This document shows, piece by piece, positions 13-10,098 of a stretch of 10,098 bases of DNA. The notes under the pieces were generated by a model. That model saw only the letters and a list, made by a program, of their open reading frames with translations. It searched no databases and was not told the DNA's origin. The stretch's first letter is position 1; the number at the start of each line of letters is the position of its first letter. The stretch is taken from assembly GCA_964643875.1 (NCBI GenBank), contig CAZXVB010000069.1, forward strand, positions 1-10,098, in the 5' to 3' direction. The DNA comes from an uncultured Anaerolineales bacterium. GTDB lineage: Bacteria > Chloroflexota > Anaerolineae > B4-G1. Made by a program: the position numbers and the translations under genes.

Positions 13-30
13 TTCAACCTGCGGGAGGGT
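13..30. repeat. Second copy of the CCTGCGGGAGGGT 13-mer (18-mer ttcaaCCTGCGGGAGGGT with 16/18 identity to 5384..5401) at the window edge, embedded in short palindromes
   Basis: 18..30 is identical to 5389..5401. The flanks are TGAGTT(9..14)...AACTCA(35..40) and CAACT-c-AGTTG (34..44). Any inverted partner (CCTCCCGCAGG) would lie left of position 1 and cannot be seen. A 13-mer repeat alone is near chance expectation in 10 kb. The significance comes from the hairpin context. Confidence 0.3.
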
Positions 31-86
31 CTCCAACTCAGTTGAAACACACCCAAGTCAAATGGGTTCGCTCTTTGGCTCTTTGG

Positions 87-749
87 TTAGAGCATGGCGG
101 TCAGTATCACGGCCGAGATGGCCGGAACCGTCAGATTGTCTATTCCCCAAGGGGATATGGCTTCGATGAGTGTTGCTCCCAGGGCCGTCACGGCAGCACT
201 CCATACTATGGAACTCCATGGCAGGGGGAGGGGTGACAGAAGAAGCAGGGGAATCAGCGTGGCGATCCAACTGCTGATGAACATCACGCCCGATCCTTCC
301 TGGGAGCGGGTATAGCCTAGAAGGACGTAACGCCTCTGCCCGAACCGTTGCCCAACGACGGCTGCCAGGGCGTCTCCCCAGGTCATAGGCATCAGACTGG
401 CAACCAGCAGATGGGGAGAGTCCCACAGCAACCAGACGATGATGGCAAACGAGATGGGAAAGTAAATGGTGCCCAGTTGGCCCTTCTGGCCGGTTTCCAT
501 AGCCTGGAACGTTCCCCGCCAATAGGAGAATACATTGATGGCGATAAAGGCAATGGGAGGAATGACGGCCCAGGTGCGATGTGCAAACAATAGTACCGTG
601 CCGTAACTCCACATGCCAACGGCAATGTGGATGAACTTCCGAGTGAACTCGACTGAGTAACTGCGCCATCGCCGCATTCCCTCGGCCAAGCCAATCATTG
701 CAAAAACGTAGACGAAGGAAACGATGAGTGCGAAAACATCCCTTGACAT
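87..749 (-). CDS. Polytopic membrane protein, CTP-dependent polyprenol/phytol/dolichol-kinase-like (CDP-diglyceride synthetase superfamily) (220 aa)
   Basis: Intact ORF starting at ATG 749, with a GAGGGA Shine-Dalgarno about 9 nt upstream on the minus strand. There are about 6 hydrophobic helices. Motifs 'TRKFIHIAVG' and 'GDALAAVVGQRFG' resemble the K-x-x-H...G / GD..A..vG..fG signature of the SEC59/VTE5/CdsA-like CTP-transferase family. An overlapping 203-aa ORF in another frame (58..669) is Arg/His-rich with no features. Confidence 0.55.
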   Translation of the reverse strand: MSRDVFALIVSFVYVFAMIGLAEGMRRWRSYSVEFTRKFIHIAVGMWSYGTVLLFAHRTWAVIPPIAFIAINVFSYWRGTFQAMETGQKGQLGTIYFPISFAIIVWLLWDSPHLLVASLMPMTWGDALAAVVGQRFGQRRYVLLGYTRSQEGSGVMFISSWIATLIPLLLLSPLPLPWSSIVWSAAVTALGATLIEAISPWGIDNLTVPAISAVILTAML

Positions 750-801
750 TTATCTCTATCCCTCAGCTTAAATCCACGTTTGATCCATACTCGATCCACG
801 T

Positions 802-1794
802 TCAATTACCCTTCAATAATGCAGTGATATATCCCACAAGCACATCATCGTCGATCTCAGCACCGCCAAGTATTGTTGCGTTTGCTCCTATGAAGACCAC
901 CTCACCCGCTTCGTCGAAATTGAATTTTCCAAAGACCGGCCCGTCGGCGGTTTCCAGAATGGCGTAACCCTCTTGTGTTATGTCTGACTGCCGTTTGACC
1001 AGGGCATAATCGCCTTCGTTTGCCCCCAGGCTTTCCTGTACTTCTGGAGGGACTTCTATCACGTAGTACTCACCGTCCGGCTCCAGATAAACCCGTTGGG
1101 TGCCTTTCAAGCGCCGGGTCTGTAGGATGTGCTCTCCAACGCGCAATTGGAGCCGGCTCTCGCGTTCCAGGACGAAGCGGTCCACTTCTACCTCGGCAAG
1201 GGCGAATCCCCCTTTCGCTTTCCACAGGACGACGGGGATACAGATGCGTGTGGTCGGACTGACTCCGATGCGGGCGCCGGTGCGCGTTAGGTATTCCTGC
1301 AATGTCTCCACCCATTGCCGGATTCGAACACAGGTCTCGATGTGATTGGTGGCGTTGACAGTCGCCCATTCTCGGATCACTTGCTCGCACTGCCGATCGG
1401 CCTCCTCGTACCATTGAAGCGCGTCTATCTCGTTCCCCAGGGATTGCGAAACGAGTCCCAGGGCATAGATGACCACGGCCTCGTTGTGACGCTGACAACG
1501 GGACGTTTTTTGCCGTAAGAGACGGTACGCCCGCTGATAGCTGGACAGGGCCGGGCCCAGTTTGCCTACATTGTGGTGAATATCGGCCAGGTGGACCAGC
1601 GCAAGGGCAAGGCCGATCCAGTGACCAGGCTCTTGGGTTTTGGTGACTACAGCCTGCGCGCTCTGGATCGCCTCGGACAAGCGCCCTTGTCGGCGCAGAC
1701 GGCGAACGCGACTTAATAGCTCGTCTATGAAGGATGGTAGTTCCTCCCGACAGAGCAACTCAGACGGTGTCAACTCTTGTGGTAAACGGATCAT
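802..1794 (-). CDS. Soluble hypothetical protein: N-terminal TPR-like helical repeats plus C-terminal beta-strand-rich small-barrel domain (LexA/S24-like or NfeD-OB-like) (330 aa)
   Basis: Its start codon (1792..1794) overlaps the stop of the upstream SPFH gene by 4 nt (ATGA), which suggests translational coupling. There is no TM segment. The central region has paired amphipathic helices ('GLALALVHLADIHHNVGKLGPALSSYQRAYRLL', 'ALGLVSQSLGNEIDALQWYEEADRQ'). The C-terminal 130 aa ('IPVVLWKAKGG...LRVGEHIL...GDYALVKRQSDITQEGYAILETADGPVFGKF...DDVLVGYITALLK') follows the strand pattern of LexA/S24 C-terminal domains, but the GDSM serine position reads 'GEHI'. Confidence 0.55.
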   Translation of the reverse strand: MIRLPQELTPSELLCREELPSFIDELLSRVRRLRRQGRLSEAIQSAQAVVTKTQEPGHWIGLALALVHLADIHHNVGKLGPALSSYQRAYRLLRQKTSRCQRHNEAVVIYALGLVSQSLGNEIDALQWYEEADRQCEQVIREWATVNATNHIETCVRIRQWVETLQEYLTRTGARIGVSPTTRICIPVVLWKAKGGFALAEVEVDRFVLERESRLQLRVGEHILQTRRLKGTQRVYLEPDGEYYVIEVPPEVQESLGANEGDYALVKRQSDITQEGYAILETADGPVFGKFNFDEAGEVVFIGANATILGGAEIDDDVLVGYITALLKGN

Positions 1795-3326
1795 ACCCCG
1801 CTTCCTGTGTCCAACATGCGAATAGACTTGTAGAGGTCGCTGAGTGTTGCCTCTGTTCCTTCGCTTGTTTCAGATGGCGTTTTGCTTACTTCGGCTGTCT
1901 GTCCCAGCACGTTTTTCTCCAGCGCCTCGAGGGTGCGCAACGCCTCCGGGGGGAGGAAGGTCTGACTGAATGGATCGTACGCCATCCAGTGCAGAGCCTG
2001 GAACAAGCGCAGGGCGATTAGGTGAGAGGAGACTTCGCTCTGGGTGGATACGAATGGACGAATTGCTTCCGTCAGGGTCAGCACCATCTCGGCTTGCGCC
2101 TGGAATTGGGCGGTCTGGAGACTGGACAATACTTCCGCTTCCCCTTCCGCCAGGGTTTCGATACTCCGTTGCTCCCAATCGGCGTTCCAGGCTTCGATCC
2201 ATTGGGTCGAGATGCGTTTGTCTTTCACGTTTATCTTCCCCAAAGCGATGTTGAGCAATTTGGCCCCGATCTTGTTATCCACCGTCAAGGTGTTCTCCAA
2301 CTTGCTTCGCAACTGTTCTAGAATCTCCTGGCGGGGCGGCTTCTGGTCGGGTTGTGGGGGCTGAAGCAGCCAATCCAGTCGGTAGCGGGCCAGAATGTTC
2401 CGCAAAGCGCCTTCTACTTCGCTGATCATTACCCGCCCGGTCCAGTGGCGAAGCTGCTCCTGGTGATCAGGCTGTTTGATGCGTACCCAAATGGCCGTCG
2501 CGGCATTGAATACGGCCTGATCAGTGTAGGGCAGCGGTGTGGAGATACCTCCCTTTTCTATCTCCTCGGCAATGACGCGATCCAGCGCCTCCGGGAACGT
2601 CTTGCTCCTCAAAAAGTCATCTGGGATTTCGACCGGCGATACTTCCTGGACCTGACCATCTGCACCGACTACCCGATCATCGATTTTGAAAGTAACATCC
2701 ACTTCACAGGAAATCGGGATACCCTCCTTAGTCATCGCGTGGTCGGTGAACAGCCAGCGTTGTGGACGTAGGTCTATCACTTCCCAGATACGTTCATACG
2801 GTTCCAGGAAGCCTACGGATGGCCCCAGGACGCGGGTGAGCCGACCGGCCCGTTCCAACACGACGGCGCTGTCGTTATAGACAATGATGAACCCCGGCCC
2901 TCCCACCCGGTCGAAGAAACTGCCGCTTCCCACGGCGATCTTTCCTTCACGTACGATAATGATTGGCTTGAGCCTGCTCATTCCGAAGACCAGCCGCTGG
3001 AGGAAAGAGCGGGCTTCTCCCATATCCCTGGTATCGTATAGCCCTCGAATGAAGCGCGGCGCCAGCCATAGGAAAATGGCCGCCAAGGCGAGGAAGGCCG
3101 GCAATGAATTGTAGATTGCCCCGGGGAGCAGGGAGATCAGGCGCTGTACCCACCATTGCGTCTGAACGAAGAGAACGCCTTGCGGTGGAGTCTCCGGTAT
3201 AGCAGGGACGGCATCCGTCGGATGGCTGTGAGCTTCCGCGATGAAAGCAAGAGCCAAGATCAGGAGAAGTAAGATTAGCAATATAATCAGGCGATTCGAA
3301 TTCTGAGCTTGGAGTTTCCAGCGCAT
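1791..3326 (-). CDS. Membrane-anchored SPFH/band-7 (stomatin/prohibitin/flotillin/HflKC)-like protein, paralog 2 (511 aa)
   Basis: ATG at 3326 with AGGAG 8 nt upstream. The N-terminus has a hydrophobic leader/TM ('LIILLILLLLILALAFIA') and a second TM. The core 'GRLTRVLGPSVGFLEPYERIWEVIDLRPQRWLFTDHAMTKEGIPISCEVDVTFKIDD' matches the SPFH pattern (G.f..v.PG..f..P...v..vd.r.q......TKD...v.vd.vv.y.I.d). There is a long C-terminal helical/coiled region. It is paralogous to 3354..5015 (shared 'AMTK[DE]GI' and 'IEAW..EW' segments). Confidence 0.6.
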   Translation of the reverse strand: MRWKLQAQNSNRLIILLILLLLILALAFIAEAHSHPTDAVPAIPETPPQGVLFVQTQWWVQRLISLLPGAIYNSLPAFLALAAIFLWLAPRFIRGLYDTRDMGEARSFLQRLVFGMSRLKPIIIVREGKIAVGSGSFFDRVGGPGFIIVYNDSAVVLERAGRLTRVLGPSVGFLEPYERIWEVIDLRPQRWLFTDHAMTKEGIPISCEVDVTFKIDDRVVGADGQVQEVSPVEIPDDFLRSKTFPEALDRVIAEEIEKGGISTPLPYTDQAVFNAATAIWVRIKQPDHQEQLRHWTGRVMISEVEGALRNILARYRLDWLLQPPQPDQKPPRQEILEQLRSKLENTLTVDNKIGAKLLNIALGKINVKDKRISTQWIEAWNADWEQRSIETLAEGEAEVLSSLQTAQFQAQAEMVLTLTEAIRPFVSTQSEVSSHLIALRLFQALHWMAYDPFSQTFLPPEALRTLEALEKNVLGQTAEVSKTPSETSEGTEATLSDLYKSIRMLDTGSGV

Positions 3327-3353
3327 TGTTTATGCTCCTATCTTCAAACCGGT

Positions 3354-5015
3354 TCATGCCGGATTGCTGGTTTTTCGTTGGGCGTCCCGAACGACGCGTC
3401 TCGTATCTTTAGGTAAGTAGCGCTGCACCATCGGGCGGATGGCCATTTGGTTGATAAGGTCCAGGAATTGGGCCACAATCCGGTCAAACGTGGGAGCTTC
3501 TCCGCTGCGGCGCAATTCAGCGATCCGTTTCCCGATTTCCAGGATCACATCGGTCTGCGCCTGTGCACGTGCCCATTCGACGCGTTGTATACGAGTGTGA
3601 TGGCCTGCGGCCCGCTTGCGCATTATCTGGCGCACCCATTCAGTTTGCCAGGCCTCAATACGTTTTTGTAGTACCTGCTCATTGACTGGTTCAATGTTAC
3701 CAATCCCTCCACCAATCCGCTGAATTCCCCATCCAGGCAGGACTTTGTCCAACTCATCCCGGAACTCTTTGGCTATCCGCGCGCGAGGGTCGTCGCCAGG
3801 GTTATCGAACAGCTCGAAGGGGGCATACAGATCGTCGAAGTTGTACCGGGAGATGATCTCTTGCAGAATGCGCTCCCCGGCCAACTGTGGTAGGTCATAC
3901 CACTTGAGGGCCTCCAGTTGGTCAGGTTCCTGAGAAGGGTTCTTGTGGTCTATCACCTGGGCCTGGAACGCCCGGAAGACATCACTAGCCCGGTAGGGAT
4001 ACCCCCGTCCCAGCGCTGGGCGTTGCCCGCCGGCCCCCATCTGGAATGGGATGAAGGCGAAGAACTTGACTTCAATGCCGTCCTTGGTCATCGCTGTGAC
4101 GGGGAAAGCCCGTAGTTGCACCCGCAGATCAATCGCCTGAGTAGGGGTATCGGACATGCCGGTAAACACCACCCCCGGTCCTTTGGGGCCTTTGAACCGC
4201 AGCCCCGAAGAGATGGCAACAGCGTGATCGCATCCGGTAAGCACTAGGCCCGGCCCTGACAGGAATGCACCGTATGTGTCGCCTGCTGCCCGTTTGACCA
4301 GCCGTTCTTCGCCGGTCAGCCAGGTCCGGTTGTCCTCGGTGCGGGCCATAATCTTTTCATCTACAACGACATAGTAGGGATAGTTGGTGCCCAACGTATA
4401 TGTGATCAGGCAACGCAAAGCTTTGCGGCGGTGCTCGATCCATTCCTGACGGATGGCCTTGTTCTGTCGGAAACGGAACATCGCCAGGAAATCCAAAATC
4501 TGGTCTTTCAACATCGGCACTCCGCCCGGTTGGGGAGCGGAGCGCTTACCCCGATAAAGGGCATCCTGTGGTGGAGAGGGAATCAAAAAACCGGCCACAA
4601 AGAGAAGCCCCCCTCCGGCGATCAGGAGCGCTGGCACGGTAATGGTCAACACCCCCAACCAGCCGGAGCGCCATCCGACGCACCCGGCGAACCAGAAGTA
4701 GACCCAGGGGACGTAGAGGGACCAGGCCTTGATGCGTTTGTTGTTCGGTTCCATTGAGGGCAACAGAATCATCAACAGTAGGCCGGCTATTAGATTGGTG
4801 AAGAACCCCAGGGTTGGACCGCCAGCGATTATGCCCGACAGAGCCACTACAAGATAGAGCGTCATCCCTATCAGGCTACTGATGAGCCAAAATCCACATG
4901 TGATGGTGATGTCCAGGCGATTAAAAGTGGCGAGTTTGAGAAACAGGCCAATAGCTACCGTGCCGCCAATCGTCAACGTGGTCAAAAGCATCAAGTCATT
5001 GAGTAGGTCTGGCAT
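3354..5015 (-). CDS. Polytopic membrane SPFH/band-7-like protein, paralog 1 (about 553 aa)
   Basis: The ORF track starts at 5021 (MNMPDLLN), but the AAGGAG Shine-Dalgarno lies only 1 nt from that ATG and 7 nt from the second ATG (5013..5015), so the MPDLLN start is preferred. About 6 N-terminal TM helices are followed by the SPFH-like core 'GPGLVLTGCDHAVAISSGLRFKGPKGPGVVFTGMSDTPTQAIDLRVQLRAFPVTAMTKDGIEVKFFAFIPF' and a C-terminal helical region resembling that of the paralog. Confidence 0.6.
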   Translation of the reverse strand: MPDLLNDLMLLTTLTIGGTVAIGLFLKLATFNRLDITITCGFWLISSLIGMTLYLVVALSGIIAGGPTLGFFTNLIAGLLLMILLPSMEPNNKRIKAWSLYVPWVYFWFAGCVGWRSGWLGVLTITVPALLIAGGGLLFVAGFLIPSPPQDALYRGKRSAPQPGGVPMLKDQILDFLAMFRFRQNKAIRQEWIEHRRKALRCLITYTLGTNYPYYVVVDEKIMARTEDNRTWLTGEERLVKRAAGDTYGAFLSGPGLVLTGCDHAVAISSGLRFKGPKGPGVVFTGMSDTPTQAIDLRVQLRAFPVTAMTKDGIEVKFFAFIPFQMGAGGQRPALGRGYPYRASDVFRAFQAQVIDHKNPSQEPDQLEALKWYDLPQLAGERILQEIISRYNFDDLYAPFELFDNPGDDPRARIAKEFRDELDKVLPGWGIQRIGGGIGNIEPVNEQVLQKRIEAWQTEWVRQIMRKRAAGHHTRIQRVEWARAQAQTDVILEIGKRIAELRRSGEAPTFDRIVAQFLDLINQMAIRPMVQRYLPKDTRRVVRDAQRKTSNPA

Positions 5016-5209
5016 ATTCATACTCCTTGGCAGATGGGCAAATGATCTGGGAGAAAGATAATTGCTCTCATTTGCGGTTGTTCCTTAATTGCCGGTACAG
5101 GCTCTTCTTTCACTCGTGCACTCGCTGGGCAATCGTGGTAGCAACTATACTGGTTTTTCCTCAACAGAGATCGTGTTTCGGCTATGCGGGGACACAAACG
5201 CACTGGCTT

Positions 5210-5237
5210 GATTATATGTCAGAATAGTCTGAAAGCA
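5210..5237 (-). promoter_or_regulatory. Candidate sigma70-like promoter for the minus-strand SPFH operon (-35 TTGCTT 5237..5232, 16-nt spacer, -10 TATAAT 5215..5210)
   Basis: The minus strand reads '...ggattTTGCTTtcagactattctgacaTATAATcaagcc'. The -10 is a perfect consensus and the -35 matches 3/6. A start near 5203 would give a leader of about 190 nt to the SPFH start at 5015. Confidence 0.3.
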
Positions 5238-5359
5238 AAATCCAGTTATACCGCCTTGTACAGCATCGAGGCTCGCCATCTGGAATCGGGATACTGGCCG
5301 TATGATGATATTATACTGATTCTCATGTTTGAGACAAACTCTCATTACCCGACATTTTG

Positions 5360-5401
5360 ACCCTCCCGTAGGTTCGGATGCGGTTAACCCTGCGGGAGGG
5401 T
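5360..5401. repeat. 13-bp stem (one G-U wobble) with a 16-nt loop in the leader of the first NTPase gene; the right arm is a repeated 13-mer
   Basis: ACCCTCCCGTAGG (5360..5372), loop ttcggatgcggttaac, CCTGCGGGAGGGT (5389..5401). The arms are reverse complements with one position that pairs only as U-G in RNA. Flanking bases extend the stem by 2-3 weak pairs. No T-tract follows, so it is not a canonical terminator. It lies about 80 nt upstream of ATG 5484. Confidence 0.45.
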
Positions 5402-5483
5402 TAGCGAAAGACAAACTTGCCGTTGTCATTGTTCTATGGTATTCTTGTGCCAGCGGTGTGACAAAGTGATAGGGGAACCACAG

Positions 5484-7007
5484 ATGAGCAGCTACGGCCA
5501 CAGTTTTAGCCGCCGCTTGAACCGGTGGTTGGAAAAATTCGGCTTGATCGCCGATCCGTTTGCATTCTATGAGGCCGATCGGGAACGTTCGGACCTACCA
5601 TATTTCTTTGTGGATCGCCCATATCTGCATGACATGATCGGCGTTCCCGACCACCCCCAATCCGCCTTTCTCCTGGCCGGTCGAGGGGAAGGGAAGACAG
5701 CCACCCGGGAAATGGTGGCCTATGAGTGTTCGTATGCCAGTTTGCGTCGTCGCGCTCTCCCGGTGCGCTACTATGACTTTACCTCTTTGCTGGAACAAAC
5801 GGGTGGGGATCTCAGCCAGGTAACTATTGGTCATCATGTACGACTCCTCGCCCGACAGATTCTCAAAGCTATGATCGCAGAGATACCGGCGACGTATTTC
5901 GATCTCCTTGATGATTTGGAGCGGGGCATATTGATGGGATACATAGCAGAGTTCGGAGATCCGATTTCCCGATTGAAGTGGGAACGCATCCTGGCTACCG
6001 CTCCGTTGGCGTTGGAATGGGAAAAGCTTTCGCCGTCTGAAACGTTACAGACTCTGTCCAACCTGGTAGTCAAGTTGGGCCGCTCCCCAGACGCCACCTA
6101 CCAGGCGCTGTATGTACTGGTGGATCGGGTGGATGAGACTGCCGCTGGGCCAGATGCGGCCGTAGCACTGTTACGTCCTCTGGTCGCGGATCGTTTGCTC
6201 CTGGAAACTGAACACGTGGCCTTCAAATTCTTCATTCCTGAAGAGGTAGGCCATAGTCTGGAGCAGGTTGTCGATCTGCGCCCCGACCGTGTATGTATCC
6301 GCCGGATTTCCTGGGATGCGGAAGCGCTGCGGGCAATGGTAGAGCAACGCATATTCTATTATAGCGAAGGCCGTACCGCGCGGTTGGAGGAGATGTGCAC
6401 GTCAGGGGTCAAATCTATGGCGATGGAGCGGATGATCCGTGCTTGTAAAGGCTCCCCCCGTCACTTGTTGCGCTTGTGTCAGGCATTGATCCATCACCAT
6501 GTCCGCCATGCCAATGAGACCAACGCATTGATCACCCATGCGGATCTGGTTGATACTTTGCGGGAGTTCGAATATCGAACAGAGGTGGAGCATACGCCAA
6601 CAAAGCGGAGCGAGACCGTGCCCACTGTGGACAAGGGGCCAATCACCGAATCTACTATGTCTCCGTCAAAGCCGCCAGAACGAGGGTTGTACATAGATGC
6701 CGGTGGGCATGTCTGGGTGGACGGGCATCCTCTGACACCGCCGCTTCCCGATCTGGAGTTCCGGCTGCTGAATATCTTGTACCAGCGTGCGCCTGAGATT
6801 GTCCCCCATTCTGCCCTGATCGAGGCCATCTGGCCCACCGCCACCTGGATGTCTTCCGACCATCCTGGTGCTTACAAGTCTGATGAGCAGAACCTCCGCA
6901 AATTGATCGGTCGCTTGCGAGAGCGATTGGACCCTGACTCTCCTGGCCGAAAGTCGCGATTTGTGAAGAACGTGCGCGGGCGGGGATACTGGCTCTGCAA
7001 GGACTGA
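5484..7007 (+). CDS. P-loop NTPase (STAND-like N-terminal signature) fused to C-terminal OmpR/PhoB-type winged-helix DNA-binding domain (507 aa)
   Basis: ATG at 5484 preceded by AGGGGAA (7 nt spacer). The longer ORF from ATG 5436 has no Shine-Dalgarno. Walker A 'LLAGRGEGKTA' (about 5673..5702) is preceded by 'FFVDR' about 25 aa upstream. A Walker-B-like 'LYVLVDRVDE' lies at about 6108..6140. The C-terminus, 'LPDLEFRLLNILYQRAPEIVPHSALIEAIWPT...DEQNLRKLIGRLRERLDPD...SRFVKNVRGRGYWL' (about 6683..7004), matches the trans_reg_C consensus (LT..EfrLL..L.....v..r..L...vW....drtvdv.I.rLRkKl.......I.tvrGvGYrl). Confidence 0.75.
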   Translation: MSSYGHSFSRRLNRWLEKFGLIADPFAFYEADRERSDLPYFFVDRPYLHDMIGVPDHPQSAFLLAGRGEGKTATREMVAYECSYASLRRRALPVRYYDFTSLLEQTGGDLSQVTIGHHVRLLARQILKAMIAEIPATYFDLLDDLERGILMGYIAEFGDPISRLKWERILATAPLALEWEKLSPSETLQTLSNLVVKLGRSPDATYQALYVLVDRVDETAAGPDAAVALLRPLVADRLLLETEHVAFKFFIPEEVGHSLEQVVDLRPDRVCIRRISWDAEALRAMVEQRIFYYSEGRTARLEEMCTSGVKSMAMERMIRACKGSPRHLLRLCQALIHHHVRHANETNALITHADLVDTLREFEYRTEVEHTPTKRSETVPTVDKGPITESTMSPSKPPERGLYIDAGGHVWVDGHPLTPPLPDLEFRLLNILYQRAPEIVPHSALIEAIWPTATWMSSDHPGAYKSDEQNLRKLIGRLRERLDPDSPGRKSRFVKNVRGRGYWLCKD

Positions 7008-7055
7008 TTCGCCTCGTACGTTACACGCAGGGCGATTTCTGTCACACTCCAGACC

Positions 7056-7087
7056 GGGGCGTCATTTTTCTGTCCCCATGACGTCCC
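7056..7087 (+). other. Hairpin GGGGCGTCAT / loop ttttctgtcccc / ATGACGTCCC, 49 nt downstream of the first NTPase stop
   Basis: 10-bp stem with one mismatch and a perfect CGTCAT...ATGACG core. No U-tract follows ('acacaggtc'). It could be a factor-dependent terminator or protein-binding palindrome, or it could be chance. Confidence 0.2.
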
Positions 7088-7097
7088 ACACAGGTCA

Positions 7098-7126
7098 TTG
7101 ATTCCCTGGCAAGATTAGGATATGAT
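7098..7126 (+). promoter_or_regulatory. Near-consensus sigma70-type promoter: -35 TTGATT (7098..7103), 17-nt spacer, -10 TATGAT (7121..7126)
   Basis: Read directly from the sequence: 'cattgattccctggcaagattaggatatgatgacac'. It lies in the 243-nt gap between the first and second NTPase genes, about 125 nt upstream of ATG 7251, which implies NTPase genes 2-4 can be transcribed independently of gene 1. Confidence 0.4.
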
Positions 7127-7137
7127 GACACTATCCT
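7117..7137. promoter_or_regulatory. Operator-like palindrome AGGATA-N9-TATCCT overlapping the -10 element
   Basis: AGGATA (7117..7122), tgatgacac, TATCCT (7132..7137) form a perfect 6-bp inverted repeat with a 9-bp spacer spanning the -10 hexamer and the predicted start. TAGGATAG occurs again at 7237..7244, in the Shine-Dalgarno region. Confidence 0.3.
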
Positions 7138-7155
7138 CGTATAGTCTGCGATGGG

Positions 7156-7215
7156 CAGACGCCAGGTGACCGTTGCCAGACGATGGGGCGGTGAGAGACG
7201 GTCGCCTGACGTCTG
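7156..7215 (+). promoter_or_regulatory. Long imperfect palindrome / leader stem-loop (17-bp arms, 26-nt loop) followed by a T-rich tract, upstream of the second NTPase start
   Basis: CAGACGCCAGGTGACCG (7156..7172) pairs with CGGTCGCCTGACGTCTG (7199..7215): 15 Watson-Crick pairs, 1 G-U and 1 C-A mismatch. It is followed by 'TTGGTTT'. It lies between the candidate promoter (7098..7126) and ATG 7251 and spans the alternative TTG (7173). It could be an attenuator, terminator or regulator binding site. Confidence 0.3.
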
Positions 7216-7250
7216 TTGGTTTACGAGAAGAGGTTCGTAGGATAGCAAAA

Positions 7251-8756
7251 ATGGAGCCAATCGGTCGAGTCATGCGGCACGGATTGCCGAATCAACGCTA
7301 TCTGGATTTCGTTGGACGGTATCTACTTCACCGACCACCGGGTACACCATCGGTGGATCCATTCCAGCCTCAGTTGTCGGTGGAACAAATCGAAGGAGCA
7401 TATGTGGACCGGACGGCTGTCGAAAAAGAAGCCTGTCGGTTGGATACGCAGATCGTAATGGGCCGGCAGGGAAGTGGAAAGACAACCCTGGCGATCCGCT
7501 TGTCCACGCTGCTTCGACAGGGCGTGTTGGTAGTACCGGTTCCTATCGAACTGGCCGAGGTCTACGCTCGACTCGACTCAATCTCCGAGGGTTCAACGCC
7601 GCTGTCCCCCGGCCCTTTGGCAACACTCATATTCGACGCCTACTGGGAAAATCTGTTGTACAATCCGGCGCATCGAGGTCGTTTTTTACCCCGATTGCGC
7701 CAGGATCGGTTGTGGATGGTACGGCTGCGTTGGTTTTATCACCACTTGCCTCCCCGGCATCTTGAAATCCCAGAAGAGTTCGAGTTGATGACATGGCTGA
7801 GAGCCAGTCCATCCAATGAAATCTATGGGGCAGCGATGCGACCGGAGGATATGTTGAGGGAACTGATTCGATTCGTGACCTCGGCAGACCTATCCTTGGC
7901 CTCAGCATGGACACAGGCGTATCGCGCTCGCGCTCCTTACGAACACATTCAAGTGCTTCTGGATGGCGTGGAACATTGCTCGGAGGCCGGGCTGGAGCGT
8001 TTGGGTCGGGATGTGACCTGGCTCCATCGTTTATCTCTGGAAACAGGGCGTATTTCATTCAAACTATTTGCCGGTGACTATTTGCGTGAGGCCTTCGAGA
8101 GGATACGCTGTGTTCAATCCGGGCAAGTAACTCTATACGCGCTTCCTCTATGGAGCGAAGATGACCTCCGACGGTTATTGTACCGCCGTCTGGCGATGTG
8201 GATGCCGGGGGAGAGTATCGCGCCGACGGATTTCTCGGATCGTCGGGAACGGATGACTGAACTTCGGAAGGCTCTGTCCCATTTCCTGGATGAAGAAGGG
8301 GTAAAAACCCTCTGTCGCGATCTGGGAATAGATTATCAAGATTTACCGGCTCAAGGGAAAACGAACAAACTTCGAGAACTGATCGCTCAAATGGAGCGAC
8401 GGGATCGCCTCTCCGAATTATTTGCGATTTCCAGTCGGATCTGCCCCCAATTGGAGTCCCGGTGGCCCATCCCTTCAGAAGGGAAAGAGGGTATGAAGTG
8501 GGAGTCCAATTGGGGAATGCGTATTCCCGACTGCTATTTGACGTCGTTGGCTCGGAAGCATCTGGTCAGAGAGATCGTCGCGGGCGCCCTGCGGGTCTAC
8601 AAGCAAGAGGATGCCTGGGATGCGCCCATACACTTGCTGAAGTTAGCCCGTGGTCTCCTGGCTGCTTCCGTGGGATGTTGGAAAGAACAAGGATTTTGCC
8701 CCCCGCTCAATATCGATCAAATAGCCGCTTTGATCGATTCGTACTGGGCCACATAA
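7251..8756 (+). CDS. P-loop NTPase (STAND-like), paralog of 5484..7007, with internal EAD-like helical adaptor segment (501 aa)
   Basis: ATG at 7251 with AGGAT 7 nt upstream. The ORF track begins at an in-frame TTG at 7173 with no Shine-Dalgarno. Walker A 'VMGRQGSGKTTLA' (about 7455..7493) is preceded by 'YVDRTAVEKE'. Both this protein and 5484..7007 share the N-terminal layout DPF-x13/15-[FY]VDR-x16/20-GRxGxGKT. A Walker-B-like 'IQVLLDGVEH' is present. The segment 'VKTLCRDLGIDYQDLPAQGKTNKLRELIAQMERRDRLSELF' (8265..8430) is read by memory as an effector-associated-domain-like helical module. Confidence 0.7.
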   Translation: MEPIGRVMRHGLPNQRYLDFVGRYLLHRPPGTPSVDPFQPQLSVEQIEGAYVDRTAVEKEACRLDTQIVMGRQGSGKTTLAIRLSTLLRQGVLVVPVPIELAEVYARLDSISEGSTPLSPGPLATLIFDAYWENLLYNPAHRGRFLPRLRQDRLWMVRLRWFYHHLPPRHLEIPEEFELMTWLRASPSNEIYGAAMRPEDMLRELIRFVTSADLSLASAWTQAYRARAPYEHIQVLLDGVEHCSEAGLERLGRDVTWLHRLSLETGRISFKLFAGDYLREAFERIRCVQSGQVTLYALPLWSEDDLRRLLYRRLAMWMPGESIAPTDFSDRRERMTELRKALSHFLDEEGVKTLCRDLGIDYQDLPAQGKTNKLRELIAQMERRDRLSELFAISSRICPQLESRWPIPSEGKEGMKWESNWGMRIPDCYLTSLARKHLVREIVAGALRVYKQEDAWDAPIHLLKLARGLLAASVGCWKEQGFCPPLNIDQIAALIDSYWAT

Positions 8757-8788
8757 GTTGATTTTCGAGGGGAAGAAAGGAGAGGAAT

Positions 8789-10006
8789 ATGGTCAGTTTC
8801 CAAGATCGCAAGGAGTCACTGAAACAGATATGTGATCCTGCCAATAGAGGTTTCCTGTTGAACATTTATGGGGAGGCCGGCATTGGTAAATCCCGCTTGA
8901 TGATGGAAGCCAGAGAGCGATTACGGAAAAATTCTCCGCCGACGTTGGTGTTCTACGTGGACCTGAAGCCTGTATCACAGCGAGCGCCAATGGAACGTCC
9001 CGCCGTGTTACTTCAAGAGCTGTTGAGTCGCGCGGAAGGCCGTCTGAGGGTGGAAGGGCAGGGAGTCGAGTATGATGCGGGGCAAATCATTGCTCAGTTG
9101 ACCGCACTGTCCAATCAAAATCCTGTGACGTTGATGTTCGATACCACGGAAACGTTGCAGGAGGATATGGAGTTCTGGAAGTGGTTGGAAACCAATCTAA
9201 TTGGGCCTCTGGTCGTCGAAGGGAGCGTACAATTGATATTTGCCGGCCGGATTCCCGTTCCCTGGCGGCGGGTGGAAGTGCGGCGGGCGGTCAAGCTGCT
9301 CCTTCTTCAGCCCCTTCACCCTCAAGAAGCAGCTCGCGAACTGGCCCGCGAGGTGTTACGCCAACACAATGCACACTGGAACGAAGCCGTGTTGGAACAA
9401 GCGATTTCTTTGGTATTAGAATTTTCGTTTGCACATCCATTATTGTCCGAAAAGTTGGCGGAATTCATTGCGCAAGAGTGGCAGCCACCGCCTGGCTACA
9501 ATACTGGTTCTGGCCGTTCCAATTCCGATAGCCTTGATTTCGGCAGTGAGTTCCGAGGAAAGTTGTGTAAAGAGGTGGTGGAGCCATTTGTCGAACAGCA
9601 CCTTTTGGAAACAGTAGAACCAACCTGGAAGAAGATCCTGTGGTGGGTCAGCGTGCTGGATTGGTTCGATGCTACAATTTTGCAACGTTATCTGCGGCTA
9701 GTGGCCCCGAACATGAGCACTGACAAGCCCGATTATTTTTTCGTGCAGGGTCTGACACGTTTGCGCATCCATCACACCGTTGTTTGGCGAGAGGAGAGGG
9801 GAGACCGAATGCATGGCGTGATTGGGGACATCATGCGACATTGCCTCCAGGTACAGAAGCCGGAGGTCTATCGTCAGGCATGTCTGAAAGCGGCCGAGAT
9901 GTTCGATGAGCTGGCCGGGGAGTTCGAGGATGACCCAGAGGCAGATCGGTATCGTCAACAGGCTGAGAAATACCGCCGACGTGCGGCACAGGAGGTAGAG
10001 GTATGA
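8789..10006 (+). CDS. STAND-type P-loop NTPase (405 aa)
   Basis: Strong Shine-Dalgarno GAAAGGAGAGG 6 nt before ATG 8789, 32 nt after the stop of the upstream gene. 'FQDRKESLKQI' is followed by 'FLLNIYGEAGIGKSRLMMEA' (Walker A, about 8870..8893), and Walker B 'VTLMFDTTE' lies about 85 aa later (about 9124..9150). The C-terminal 250 aa are helical with no recognisable effector or repeat sensor domain. Confidence 0.75.
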   Translation: MVSFQDRKESLKQICDPANRGFLLNIYGEAGIGKSRLMMEARERLRKNSPPTLVFYVDLKPVSQRAPMERPAVLLQELLSRAEGRLRVEGQGVEYDAGQIIAQLTALSNQNPVTLMFDTTETLQEDMEFWKWLETNLIGPLVVEGSVQLIFAGRIPVPWRRVEVRRAVKLLLLQPLHPQEAARELAREVLRQHNAHWNEAVLEQAISLVLEFSFAHPLLSEKLAEFIAQEWQPPPGYNTGSGRSNSDSLDFGSEFRGKLCKEVVEPFVEQHLLETVEPTWKKILWWVSVLDWFDATILQRYLRLVAPNMSTDKPDYFFVQGLTRLRIHHTVVWREERGDRMHGVIGDIMRHCLQVQKPEVYRQACLKAAEMFDELAGEFEDDPEADRYRQQAEKYRRRAAQEVEV

Positions 10007-10098
10007 GCGAGAGAGATTTGACTGAACGCACTCCCAAAATGGTTGGACGACAGGAAGAAACGGTCCGCTTGAGAAAGCACCTGTATGCCCGTGGCGAA
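10003..10098 (+). CDS. 5' fragment of a fourth P-loop/STAND-like gene, truncated by the window end (MSERDLTERTPKMVGRQEETVRLRKHLYARGE...)
   Basis: ATG 10003 overlaps the TGA of the upstream gene (ATGA), which suggests translational coupling. 'MVGRQEETVRLRKHL' is the classic 'hhGRExEl..L' element that precedes the Walker A in STAND NTPases. Only 32 codons are visible, so the call rests on the motif and the operon context. Confidence 0.45.
   Translation, partial: MSERDLTERTPKMVGRQEETVRLRKHLYARGE

Follow-up and report, generated by a model that had tools for sequence, protein, structure and literature searches.

The DNA analyzed here, referred to as the window, is an entire contig of 10,098 nt from an uncultured Anaerolineales bacterium, and its right-hand part, positions 5484-10098, holds the four consecutive ATPase genes, P1 to P4, with which this work is concerned. 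An initial annotation, drawn up from the sequence, had claimed four P-loop genes in a row in this region; open reading frame (ORF) listing and translation agree, with all four ORFs co-oriented on the plus strand. The packing it described is likewise found in the ORF listing: a gap of 32 nt separates P2 from P3, and P3 and P4 overlap by the sequence ATGA. P4 is cut after 32 codons and, as the window is the whole contig, this truncation is a product of assembly, not of biology.

5484-7007, plus strand: P1, 507 aa
7251-8756, plus strand: P2, 501 aa
8789-10006, plus strand: P3, 405 aa
10003-10098 (contig end), plus strand: first 32 codons of P4, ORF translation MSERDLTERTPKMVGRQEETVRLRKHLYARGE

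Alignment with homologues sets the start of P1 at the ATG at 5484, another ATG at 5436 falling within the promoter, and that of P2 at the ATG at 7251, not at the TTG at 7173. The visible residues of P4 are identical at 27 of 32 positions, by our own count, to the N-terminus of a 997-aa protein from L001 (related loci are numbered with an L throughout). The Walker A motifs reported for all four ORFs are present in P1 (AGRGEGKT), P2 (GRQGSGKT) and P3 (GEAGIGKS); that of P4 lies outside the window and is visible in homologues only, as AYGGLGKT in L001. Homologue alignments support the [FY]xDR element described ahead of Walker A as a conserved feature of three families: F42, D44 and R45 are nearly invariant among 64 homologues of P1, Y51, V52 and R54 are invariant among 12 homologues of P2, and F4 and R7 are conserved among 53 homologues of P3. 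A search against Rfam at gathering thresholds gave no match anywhere in the window.

The four proteins had also been taken for related STAND-like paralogues of about 400-500 aa lacking sensor and effector domains, and here the picture changes. Pairwise BLAST matches are weak and hhalign resolves two pairs, which rules out four close paralogues. P1 and P2 group with the ORC/Cdc6-like AAA+ ATPases of the DS-41/Sll1717 family; they align with a probability of 97% (E 1e-10, ~250 columns), the P2 hidden Markov model (HMM) matches P1 at E 3e-6, and by these sequence comparisons the two are distant paralogues. P3 and the N-terminus of P4 align with a probability of 78% (E 1.9e-5) and are distantly related STAND nucleotide-binding oligomerization domain (NOD) modules. 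Nor are the proteins uniformly short and bare: P1 carries a Trans_reg_C domain, P2 an EAD7 domain, and the homologues of P4 are 952-1035 aa long with tetratricopeptide repeats (TPRs).

P1, not a canonical STAND protein, belongs with the ORC/Cdc6-like AAA+ ATPases in the Sll1717/DS-41 family.

aa ~25-370, plus strand: AAA+ ATPase part of P1
aa 376-393, plus strand: disordered linker of P1
aa 421-503 (nt 6744-6992), plus strand: winged helix of P1

Its Walker A motif is encoded at nt ~5667-5702, and Walker B reads YVLVDRVDE. P1 scores 80.1 bits over aa 27-363 on the NCBIfam model of the Sll1717 family (NF047389, cut-off 75). The DS41_1 model (NF053860, a 448-position profile with an equivalog cut-off of 370 bits) gives P1 182.8 bits in two stretches and leaves its C-terminus uncovered, so that P1 is a homologue of DS-41 and not an equivalog; an E. 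coli plasmid protein, the positive control, reaches 414.7 bits. BLASTP aligns aa 16-355 of P1 with the E. coli DS-41 protein at 24% identity (E 3e-25). The N-terminal residues of the E. coli plasmid protein agree with the N-terminal part of WP_033812887 in the DefensePredictor supplement. WP_033812887 (DS-41/AAA2) was cloned alone and is counted as a validated anti-phage system; in its plaque-assay rows the titres of Bas63 and Bas25 lie 1.4-3.6 log10 below control (PMC13092281). The alignment thus gives the ATPase family of P1 an experimentally proven anti-phage member. This single-gene E. coli system is homologous to the ATPase module of P1 and, more distantly, to P2. DS-41 and P1 share an N-terminal DPF/NPF, a Walker A of the form G(R/Q)GxGK(T/S)ATR and a Walker B of the form VL(V/I)D(R/K)(V/L)DET, with ~340 residues aligning, and both match the Sll1717-family model. 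However, DS-41 works alone, whereas P1 is always accompanied by a paralogue and two STAND proteins, and the C-terminus of DS-41 is replaced in P1 by a PhoB-type winged helix.

This winged helix matches the Pfam family Trans_reg_C (PF00486) over aa 421-503 with 41.5 bits (cut-off 26.2, E 1.5e-10), and it is present in 120 of 120 P1 homologues among the matches listed. In an AlphaFold2 (AF2) model of P1, built with 64 homologues and reaching a mean predicted local distance difference test (pLDDT) score of 89.8, Foldseek matches the ATPase part to ORC4, archaeal Orc1/Cdc6, TnsC, RFC and BrxC. The C-terminal domain matches the DNA-binding domains of PhoB, VicR and YycF with target-normalised TM-scores of 0.71-0.81, and the residues aligned with the recognition helix of PhoB are nearly invariant across P1 homologues. 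A sequence search of the PDB with P1 returned the winged helix as its sole match, a weak one. Apart from the winged helix-turn-helix (wHTH) of P1, no DNA-binding domain was assigned in the conserved core genes. No relatives of P1 were found in viral contigs.

P2 carries Walker A and Walker B (VLLDGVE) motifs and a conserved C-terminal helical region, and scores below membership in the Sll1717 family (21.6 bits against 75), with a DS41_1 match that is also weak. Members of the family are few; 126 cluster representatives out of 1.84 billion were matched by a profile search. P2 and its relatives differ in an added domain, which in the window is an effector-associated domain (EAD).

aa 338-393 (nt 8262-8429), plus strand: EAD7 adaptor of P2, Pfam PF19960, 55.0 bits against a cut-off of 32

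In the family alignment EAD7 is an insertion that some P2 proteins have and most homologues lack. Others (L014, P0232 and P0239) carry the bacterial death-like domain bDLD1 in its place, at aa ~330-440, as bDLD1 is also found in the P2 of L025, and further relatives bear at their N-terminus PNP_UDP_1, TIR with bDLD1, or bDLD1. One P1 homologue (P0095) begins with TIR-EAD7, and an EAD7-bearing fragment of P3 exists among the relatives. In two of the three loci that lack P2, a fusion to a P1-like ATPase directly precedes P1, with SIR2 and caspase in L021 and with PNP, EAD9 and caspase in L024. The P2 slot is therefore plain, or extended by EAD7, bDLD1, TIR or PNP, or replaced by SIR2/caspase or PNP/EAD9/caspase fusions. 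EAD7 and bDLD1 are adaptor domains and TIR, PNP, SIR2 and caspase effector domains of conflict systems, in which a constant NTPase core is combined with adaptors and effectors that swap between relatives (Kaur et al. 2020, PMC7159879; PMC8195603). Such a constant core with varying adaptors and effectors is what is found at the P2 position. The suggestion that adaptor and effector sit on separate polypeptides gains support from EAD7 in the P2 of the window and from the bDLD1, TIR, PNP or SIR2/caspase fusions of the relatives. An additional feature precedes P2, a strong RNA or DNA hairpin that could be an attenuator or a processing site.

7150-7222, plus strand: hairpin in the P2 leader, arms of 18 nt, its end 29 nt from the P2 ATG

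Its predicted stability is -38.9 kcal/mol (z -5.75), none of 200 shuffles being equally stable; L001 retains part of it, and remoter loci lack it.

P3 is, by its structural model, a STAND NOD consisting of a nucleotide-binding domain, a helical domain, a winged helix and a C-terminal helical hairpin, without a sensor; neither Pfam nor the AF2 model revealed sensor repeats. Its Walker B reads LMFDTTE. Pfam matches to ATPase_2, AAA_16, AAA_22 and NACHT all remain below threshold, the best being ATPase_2 with 25.7 bits against 33.2, while homologues of P3 match AAA_16, NACHT or nSTAND6. The AF2 model (pLDDT 90.8) is matched by Foldseek best to MalT (E 2.6e-7), and also to plant nucleotide-binding leucine-rich repeat (NLR) resistosomes, ORC, PAB2304, Avs3/Avs4 and Dark. 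An exact-sequence look-up of P3 returned no record. The homologues of P4, as seen in Pfam runs on those of L001 and L021, consist of AAA_16 followed by TPR_12: AAA_16 scores 27.9 bits in L001 and 38.2 bits in L021 (cut-off 32.6) and TPR_12 48-63 bits (cut-off 30.1), placing a sensor on the same chain as the NOD in these P4 homologues, outside the window. The 4-nt overlap of P3 and P4 seen in the window recurs in eight other loci, and in four more the overlap is 8-26 nt.

Loci related to the window were retrieved through homologues of P2 and P1 and classed by a uniform ORF and BLAST/HMM procedure, which gave 19 distinct loci, all metagenomic and with gene calls partly from our own ORF finder. 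The order P1-P2-P3-P4 is found in 10 of them, and five more are cut by contig ends yet consistent with it; P2 is missing in three (L021, L023 and L024), and in one (L010) P1 is missing and P2 disrupted. Gene order holds down to 29% identity. The recurrence of the same order across the 19 loci indicates that the adjacency is not due to chance. Nearly all hosts are metagenome-assembled genomes (MAGs) of Chloroflexota/Anaerolineae, with one locus from a Candidatus Dojkabacteria MAG; the P1 homologues listed also include one assigned to a Candidatus Hadarchaeum MAG. Chloroflexota hosts are often filamentous. A search of genome contigs with P3 alone found nothing, and one with the P2 alignment found four loci. 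The initial annotation had allowed for housekeeping families such as ParA, DnaA or TniB and for genes that never co-occur elsewhere; the profiles gave no such assignment, and the homologues co-occur widely.

The flanks vary between loci (pheST, EamA, restriction-modification with Mrr and integrase, AbiEii, PIN), and the cassette therefore moves as a unit. The initial annotation had asked about a defense island; some relatives adjoin restriction-modification, Mrr, integrase, AbiEii, PIN or NYN genes, which speaks for a conflict system, while the flanks of the window and of several relatives are of another kind. Several side observations concern the integrity and the edges of the related cassettes. 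In L010, P2 is split in two ORFs (5210-6715) and P1 is missing, with the operator repeats described below still present, and in L020 P3 is split into ORFs of 41 and 332 aa (12822-13970); cassette decay or frameshifts introduced by assembly may account for both. The contigs of L001, L002 and L003 end ~100-230 nt upstream of the P1 start, as might be expected if a repeat that breaks assemblies, or a variable region, lay beside the cassette. Directly upstream of P1 in four loci lies a divergent protein of ~390 aa without Pfam or NCBIfam match, at 35-54% identity (100% between L005 and L015) and absent from the window.

L005 949-2112, minus strand: divergent ~390-aa protein
L009 704-1882, minus strand: divergent ~390-aa protein
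L015 7018-8250, minus strand: divergent ~390-aa protein
L020 8620-9792, minus strand: divergent ~390-aa protein

The cassette carries its own repeat element, not mentioned in the initial annotation, which in the window lies at the P1 promoter and, as a half-site, in the spacer between P1 and P2.

5417-5422 and 5440-5445, plus strand: P1 promoter, -35 TTGCCG and -10 TATTCT with a 17-nt spacer
5446-5463, plus strand: P1 operator TGTGCCA-gcgg-TGTGACA, directly after the -10 box and 21 nt before the P1 ATG
7040-7046, minus strand: single exact TGTGACA half-site in the P1-P2 spacer, 33 nt after the P1 stop

These hold the only two exact copies of TGTGACA in the whole 10 kb. Over the last 75 nt ahead of the P1 ATG, the window and L001 hardly differ, though the proteins share only ~80% identity. 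A -10 box with tandem TGTGACA-N4-TGTGACA at -29 to -42 is found in all 11 loci with a visible upstream region of P1, and tandem copies recur on the minus strand 30-143 nt after the P1 stop in nine loci (L003, L007, L008, L009, L011, L014, L020, L021 and L024). Allowing up to 2 mismatches, we found 51 tandem sites in the 218 kb of the 19 loci, against 3.0 ± 1.9 in 100 shuffles. They are confined almost entirely to four classes of cassette intergenic regions (48 of 51): 33 lie at the promoters of P1 or of the peptide precursor described below and 15 in the P1-P2 (or P1-P3) spacer or just after the radical SAM gene, leaving three elsewhere, about the number expected by chance. CRP-type palindromes are ruled out, as the repeats are direct and do not follow TGTGA-N6-TCACA. 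The Pho box (CTGTCAT-N4-CTGTCAC) is likewise built of two 7-bp direct repeats separated by 4 bp, and PhoB-type domains bind 7-bp direct repeats that recur every 11 bp. We infer from sequence that P1 binds the TGTGACA repeats, which would link all parts of the cassette into one regulon: P1 has the sole DNA-binding domain assigned in the core, the residues of its recognition helix are near-invariant, and the repeat spacing is PhoB-like. With the sites placed at the -10 box or behind it, repression while the system rests is suggested. A GC-rich inverted repeat with 13-nt arms, ACCCTCCCGTAGG … CCTGCGGGAGGGT, also lies ahead of the P1 promoter, at 5360-5401; the segment holding it is absent from the otherwise alignable upstream region of L001.

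The related loci extend beyond P4, where 9 of the 11 with a visible downstream region encode a small precursor and a radical SAM/SPASM protein. As the contig stops within P4, the window lacks this peptide module, which the initial annotation therefore could not see. The radical SAM/SPASM protein scores 56-66 bits for Radical_SAM and 37-39 bits for SPASM (Pfam), and in these relatives the precursor lies next to its putative maturase; no match to a named NCBIfam equivalog was found for the enzyme. The precursor is a conserved small ORF just upstream of the radical SAM/SPASM gene, with a leader L-x-FF(P) and a C-terminus …[FY]V[QE]C[DN]CACK (for example the Cys-rich …YVQCNCACK). None of three precursors tested has an NCBIfam match.

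L001 8273-8482: precursor ORF
L003 7515-7694: precursor ORF
L009 9435-9647: precursor ORF
L015 15542-15727 and 18355-18540: two precursor ORFs
L021 13611-13931: precursor ORF
L024 14898-15083: precursor ORF
L025 17330-17518: precursor ORF

Precursors with the same leader and another core, ending in …DNS…R, are found in L010 (11108-11305) and L020 (17241-17432). Downstream of the radical SAM gene there are often small hydrophobic proteins resembling two-transmembrane (two-TM) proteins, most with a GGC, SGC or GC motif ahead of the second hydrophobic stretch.

L021 15712-15945: two-TM-like protein
L024 16632-16871: two-TM-like protein
L023 18275-18472: two-TM-like protein
L025 18991-19146: two-TM-like protein
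L010 12767-12964: two-TM-like protein

Proteins of ~200 aa with hydrophobic ends and a charged middle rich in Q, E and R are encoded in L001 (10425-11069) and L025 (19190-19795). Both these and the two-TM-like proteins could be immunity, export or target components. NYN-domain proteins follow the cassette in L021 and L024. An extra STAND protein of 778 aa (AAA_16/NB-ARC with TPR) is encoded between the two precursor copies of L015, at 15902-18238, and has weak matches to the HaaT, AfsR and FxsT models. In conflict systems, coupling of STAND-TPR proteins to modules of a peptide and a radical SAM/SPASM enzyme has been described, and the peptide was proposed to be a toxin or an amplifying signal (Kaur et al.).

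Taken as a whole, we lean, with modest confidence, toward the view that the region is the front of a conserved, mostly Chloroflexota cassette in which four cooperating ATPases make up an NTP-dependent conflict system, anti-phage or programmed-death in type. P4 would sense the trigger through its TPRs, the trigger being an invader protein or the matured peptide, and P3 would serve as a sensor-less helper NOD, translationally coupled to P4 and co-assembling with it. The DS-41-type pair P1/P2 would supply the outputs, namely effector recruitment and transcription of the cassette, including the peptide module. P2 might recruit a death effector bearing a matching EAD7 and encoded elsewhere in the genome; in relatives, TIR, PNP, SIR2 or caspase is carried directly at the P2 position. 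P1 would bind the tandem TGTGACA repeats, spaced 11 bp apart and overlapping its own transcription start, and in relatives also the promoters of P2-P4, of the precursor and radical SAM/SPASM maturase, and of the small membrane protein, probably holding the regulon repressed until ATP-driven assembly alters its DNA binding. A bolder version casts the four ATPases as a hetero-oligomeric, NLR-like immune or death machine in which P4 is gated by the cassette's own radical SAM-modified peptide and the outputs are transcription through P1 and recruitment through P2; this we regard as unlikely.

Several observations weigh against the conflict-system interpretation. The functional roles all rest on domain logic and gene neighborhoods, and P1 falls below the equivalog cut-off of DS-41 with a C-terminus unlike that of DS-41. 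Neither the window nor a related 21-kb contig contains a second EAD7 protein or an enzymatic effector. The neighbors of the cassette in the window are not defense genes (two SPFH proteins, a TPR protein and a membrane protein), and several related loci adjoin housekeeping genes such as pheST. PADLOC, run on seven window proteins, recognizes nothing, with no hit for P1 and P2 and a marginal one for P3 (mad8, E 0.015). The loci are phylogenetically related, so that the counts are not independent, and the shuffle control of the repeat sites kept mononucleotide composition only. A different PhoB-family protein of the host might occupy the operator. Finally, a wHTH on all 120 P1 homologues listed and a tightly linked precursor and maturase fit the regulator of a peptide natural-product cluster equally well.

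This last point leads to the alternative that the cassette is a dedicated multi-subunit STAND regulator, a split MalT or AfsR/SARP, controlling a radical SAM-modified peptide with no role in phage defense. The peptide would be a signal, an antibiotic or a cofactor, the TPRs of P4 would sense the peptide or a metabolite, and P1 would activate or repress the cluster. We judge this somewhat unlikely, though it accounts for a good part of the data: the PhoB-type wHTH in 120 of 120 P1 homologues among the matches listed, the precursor and radical SAM/SPASM gene after P4 in 9 of the 11 informative loci, the same operator repeats at the P1 and precursor promoters, MalT as the best structural match of the P3 model, and the housekeeping flanks at some loci. 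STAND-TPR proteins are moreover known in peptide clusters, which agrees with the weak FxsT, HaaT and AfsR matches. What it leaves unexplained is EAD7 or bDLD1 at the P2 position, the TIR, PNP, SIR2 and caspase fusions of P2-like and P1-like relatives, and the DS-41 homology, and it gives no reason for four ATPases.

A different role for P1 is conceivable, that of the sensor: like ORC/Cdc6 proteins it would use its AAA+ module and winged helix to recognize invading DNA, and the repeats would be bound by another host regulator, for example the housekeeping PhoB. The repeat architecture equals that of the Pho box, and the P1 model is closest to DNA-bound initiators (ORC, Orc1/Cdc6, TnsC). Some STAND and ORC-like NTPases have been proposed as nucleic-acid sensors (Kaur et al. 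2021, PMC8195603). Yet the repeats are specific to the cassette, 48 of 51 lying in its spacers with the rest of the 218 kb at about chance level; the wHTH of P1 is the only DNA-binding domain assigned in the core genes, and its near-invariant recognition-helix residues match a conserved target. These points make the sensor role improbable. Still further down the scale, at a level we consider close to negligible, the genes would be transposon or replication accessory ATPases (TnsC/TniB, DnaA, ORC-like) or P-loop genes adjacent by chance. TnsC, DnaA and ORC do appear among the Foldseek matches, but transposase, TniQ and replication genes occur in none of the 19 loci, gene order is kept despite different flanks, no relatives were found in viral contigs, and the P2 family is rare and context-specific. 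A TnsC/TniB or DnaA/ORC housekeeping role is accordingly rejected, there being no transposase or replication neighbors.

The initial annotation had proposed a conserved multi-NTPase module matching no named system, and the conserved order and the lack of usable PADLOC matches are in line with this. A description of the cassette was not found in the literature searched, where Sll1717 and nSTAND6 drew a blank as well, and a matching architecture is absent from PMC7159879 and PMC8195603. The cassette is best filed within the known class of EAD-coupled NTP-dependent conflict systems, as a variant with a new core. It resembles the members of this class (PMC7159879, PMC8195603) in the EAD7 or bDLD1 on a core NTPase, in effectors that vary between close relatives (TIR, PNP, SIR2, caspase), in its occurrence mostly in Chloroflexota, and in the linkage of a STAND-TPR protein with a small peptide and its neighboring radical SAM/SPASM enzyme. 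It differs in that the core consists of two DS-41-type AAA+ ATPases and two STAND NODs, whereas the known cores (vWA-MoxR with VMAP, iSTAND or FtsH; GAP1 GTPase; NucA-peptidase; EACC1; TRADD-N) are absent from the window and from the conserved parts of the loci. The cassette also has its own PhoB-type transcription factor and operator, no zincin peptidase is seen beside its peptide, and its core peptide …YVQCNCACK is unlike the known FxSxx, RxD and acidic types.

Other known systems share single aspects of this architecture. MalT and AfsR/SARP regulators likewise combine a NOD ATPase, a TPR-like sensor and a DNA-binding domain, which in AfsR is an OmpR-type wHTH, but carry all of these on one polypeptide, whereas the cassette splits them across P1, P3 and P4. 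The wHTH of the cassette is C-terminal to an ORC-like AAA+ module and not, as in AfsR/SARP, N-terminal to NB-ARC, and Pfam finds neither a BTAD nor a LuxR domain in the cassette. P4 is like Avs in its architecture of NOD and TPR sensor, and the P3 model matches Avs3, Avs4 and plant resistosomes; a sensor-less P3 beside a sensor P4 recalls, by analogy only, the sensor-helper NLR pairs of plants. Unlike Avs, P3 and P4 have no N-terminal effector, the effector or adaptor role lying on a different ATPase family (P2), and no Avs profile of PADLOC matches any of the seven window proteins. Avs1B is listed as a remote homologue of DS-41 (DefensePredictor supplement, PMC13092281). The C-terminal domain of P1 is like that of PhoB, and the operator, with its two 7-bp direct repeats and 4-bp spacer, is like the Pho box; however, P1 has an AAA+ ATPase where the receiver domain would be, and the cassette sites, found at the -10 box or downstream of it, do not take the place of the -35 box.

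Upstream of the cassette, the window holds a block of four genes on the minus strand (87-5021), two of which encode large membrane proteins with SPFH/Band_7 domains.

3354-5021, minus strand: SPFH/Band_7 membrane protein (domain search)
1791-3326, minus strand: SPFH/Band_7 membrane protein (domain search)
802-1794, minus strand: TPR protein with a hexapeptide-like C-terminus (domain search)
87-749, minus strand: membrane protein (domain search)

This block is syntenic in L015 and partly in L012 and absent beside the cassette elsewhere; a Band_7 gene near the cassette in L021/L022 is unrelated to the SPFH genes of the window. With synteny only in L012/L015 and different flanks at the other loci, the SPFH, TPR and membrane genes are rejected as parts of the system.

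Should the conflict-system interpretation hold, the DS-41 family, validated as anti-phage but opaque in mechanism, would gain a context as an effector- or DNA-coupled AAA+ switch, and the EAD principle would extend to a new four-ATPase core. With sensor, helper NOD, adaptor and transcription-factor subunits on separate, co-regulated genes, the cassette would offer a system for dissecting how NLR-like signaling is partitioned, and it would tie a new family of peptides with a Cys-rich C-terminus, together with their radical SAM/SPASM maturase, to immunity or signaling. Although the hosts are uncultured, the model can be tested directly in vitro, given the domain boundaries and the predicted operator TGTGACA-N4-TGTGACA. 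If the hetero-oligomeric version were also true, the cassette would represent a self-peptide-licensed resistosome with a built-in transcription factor.

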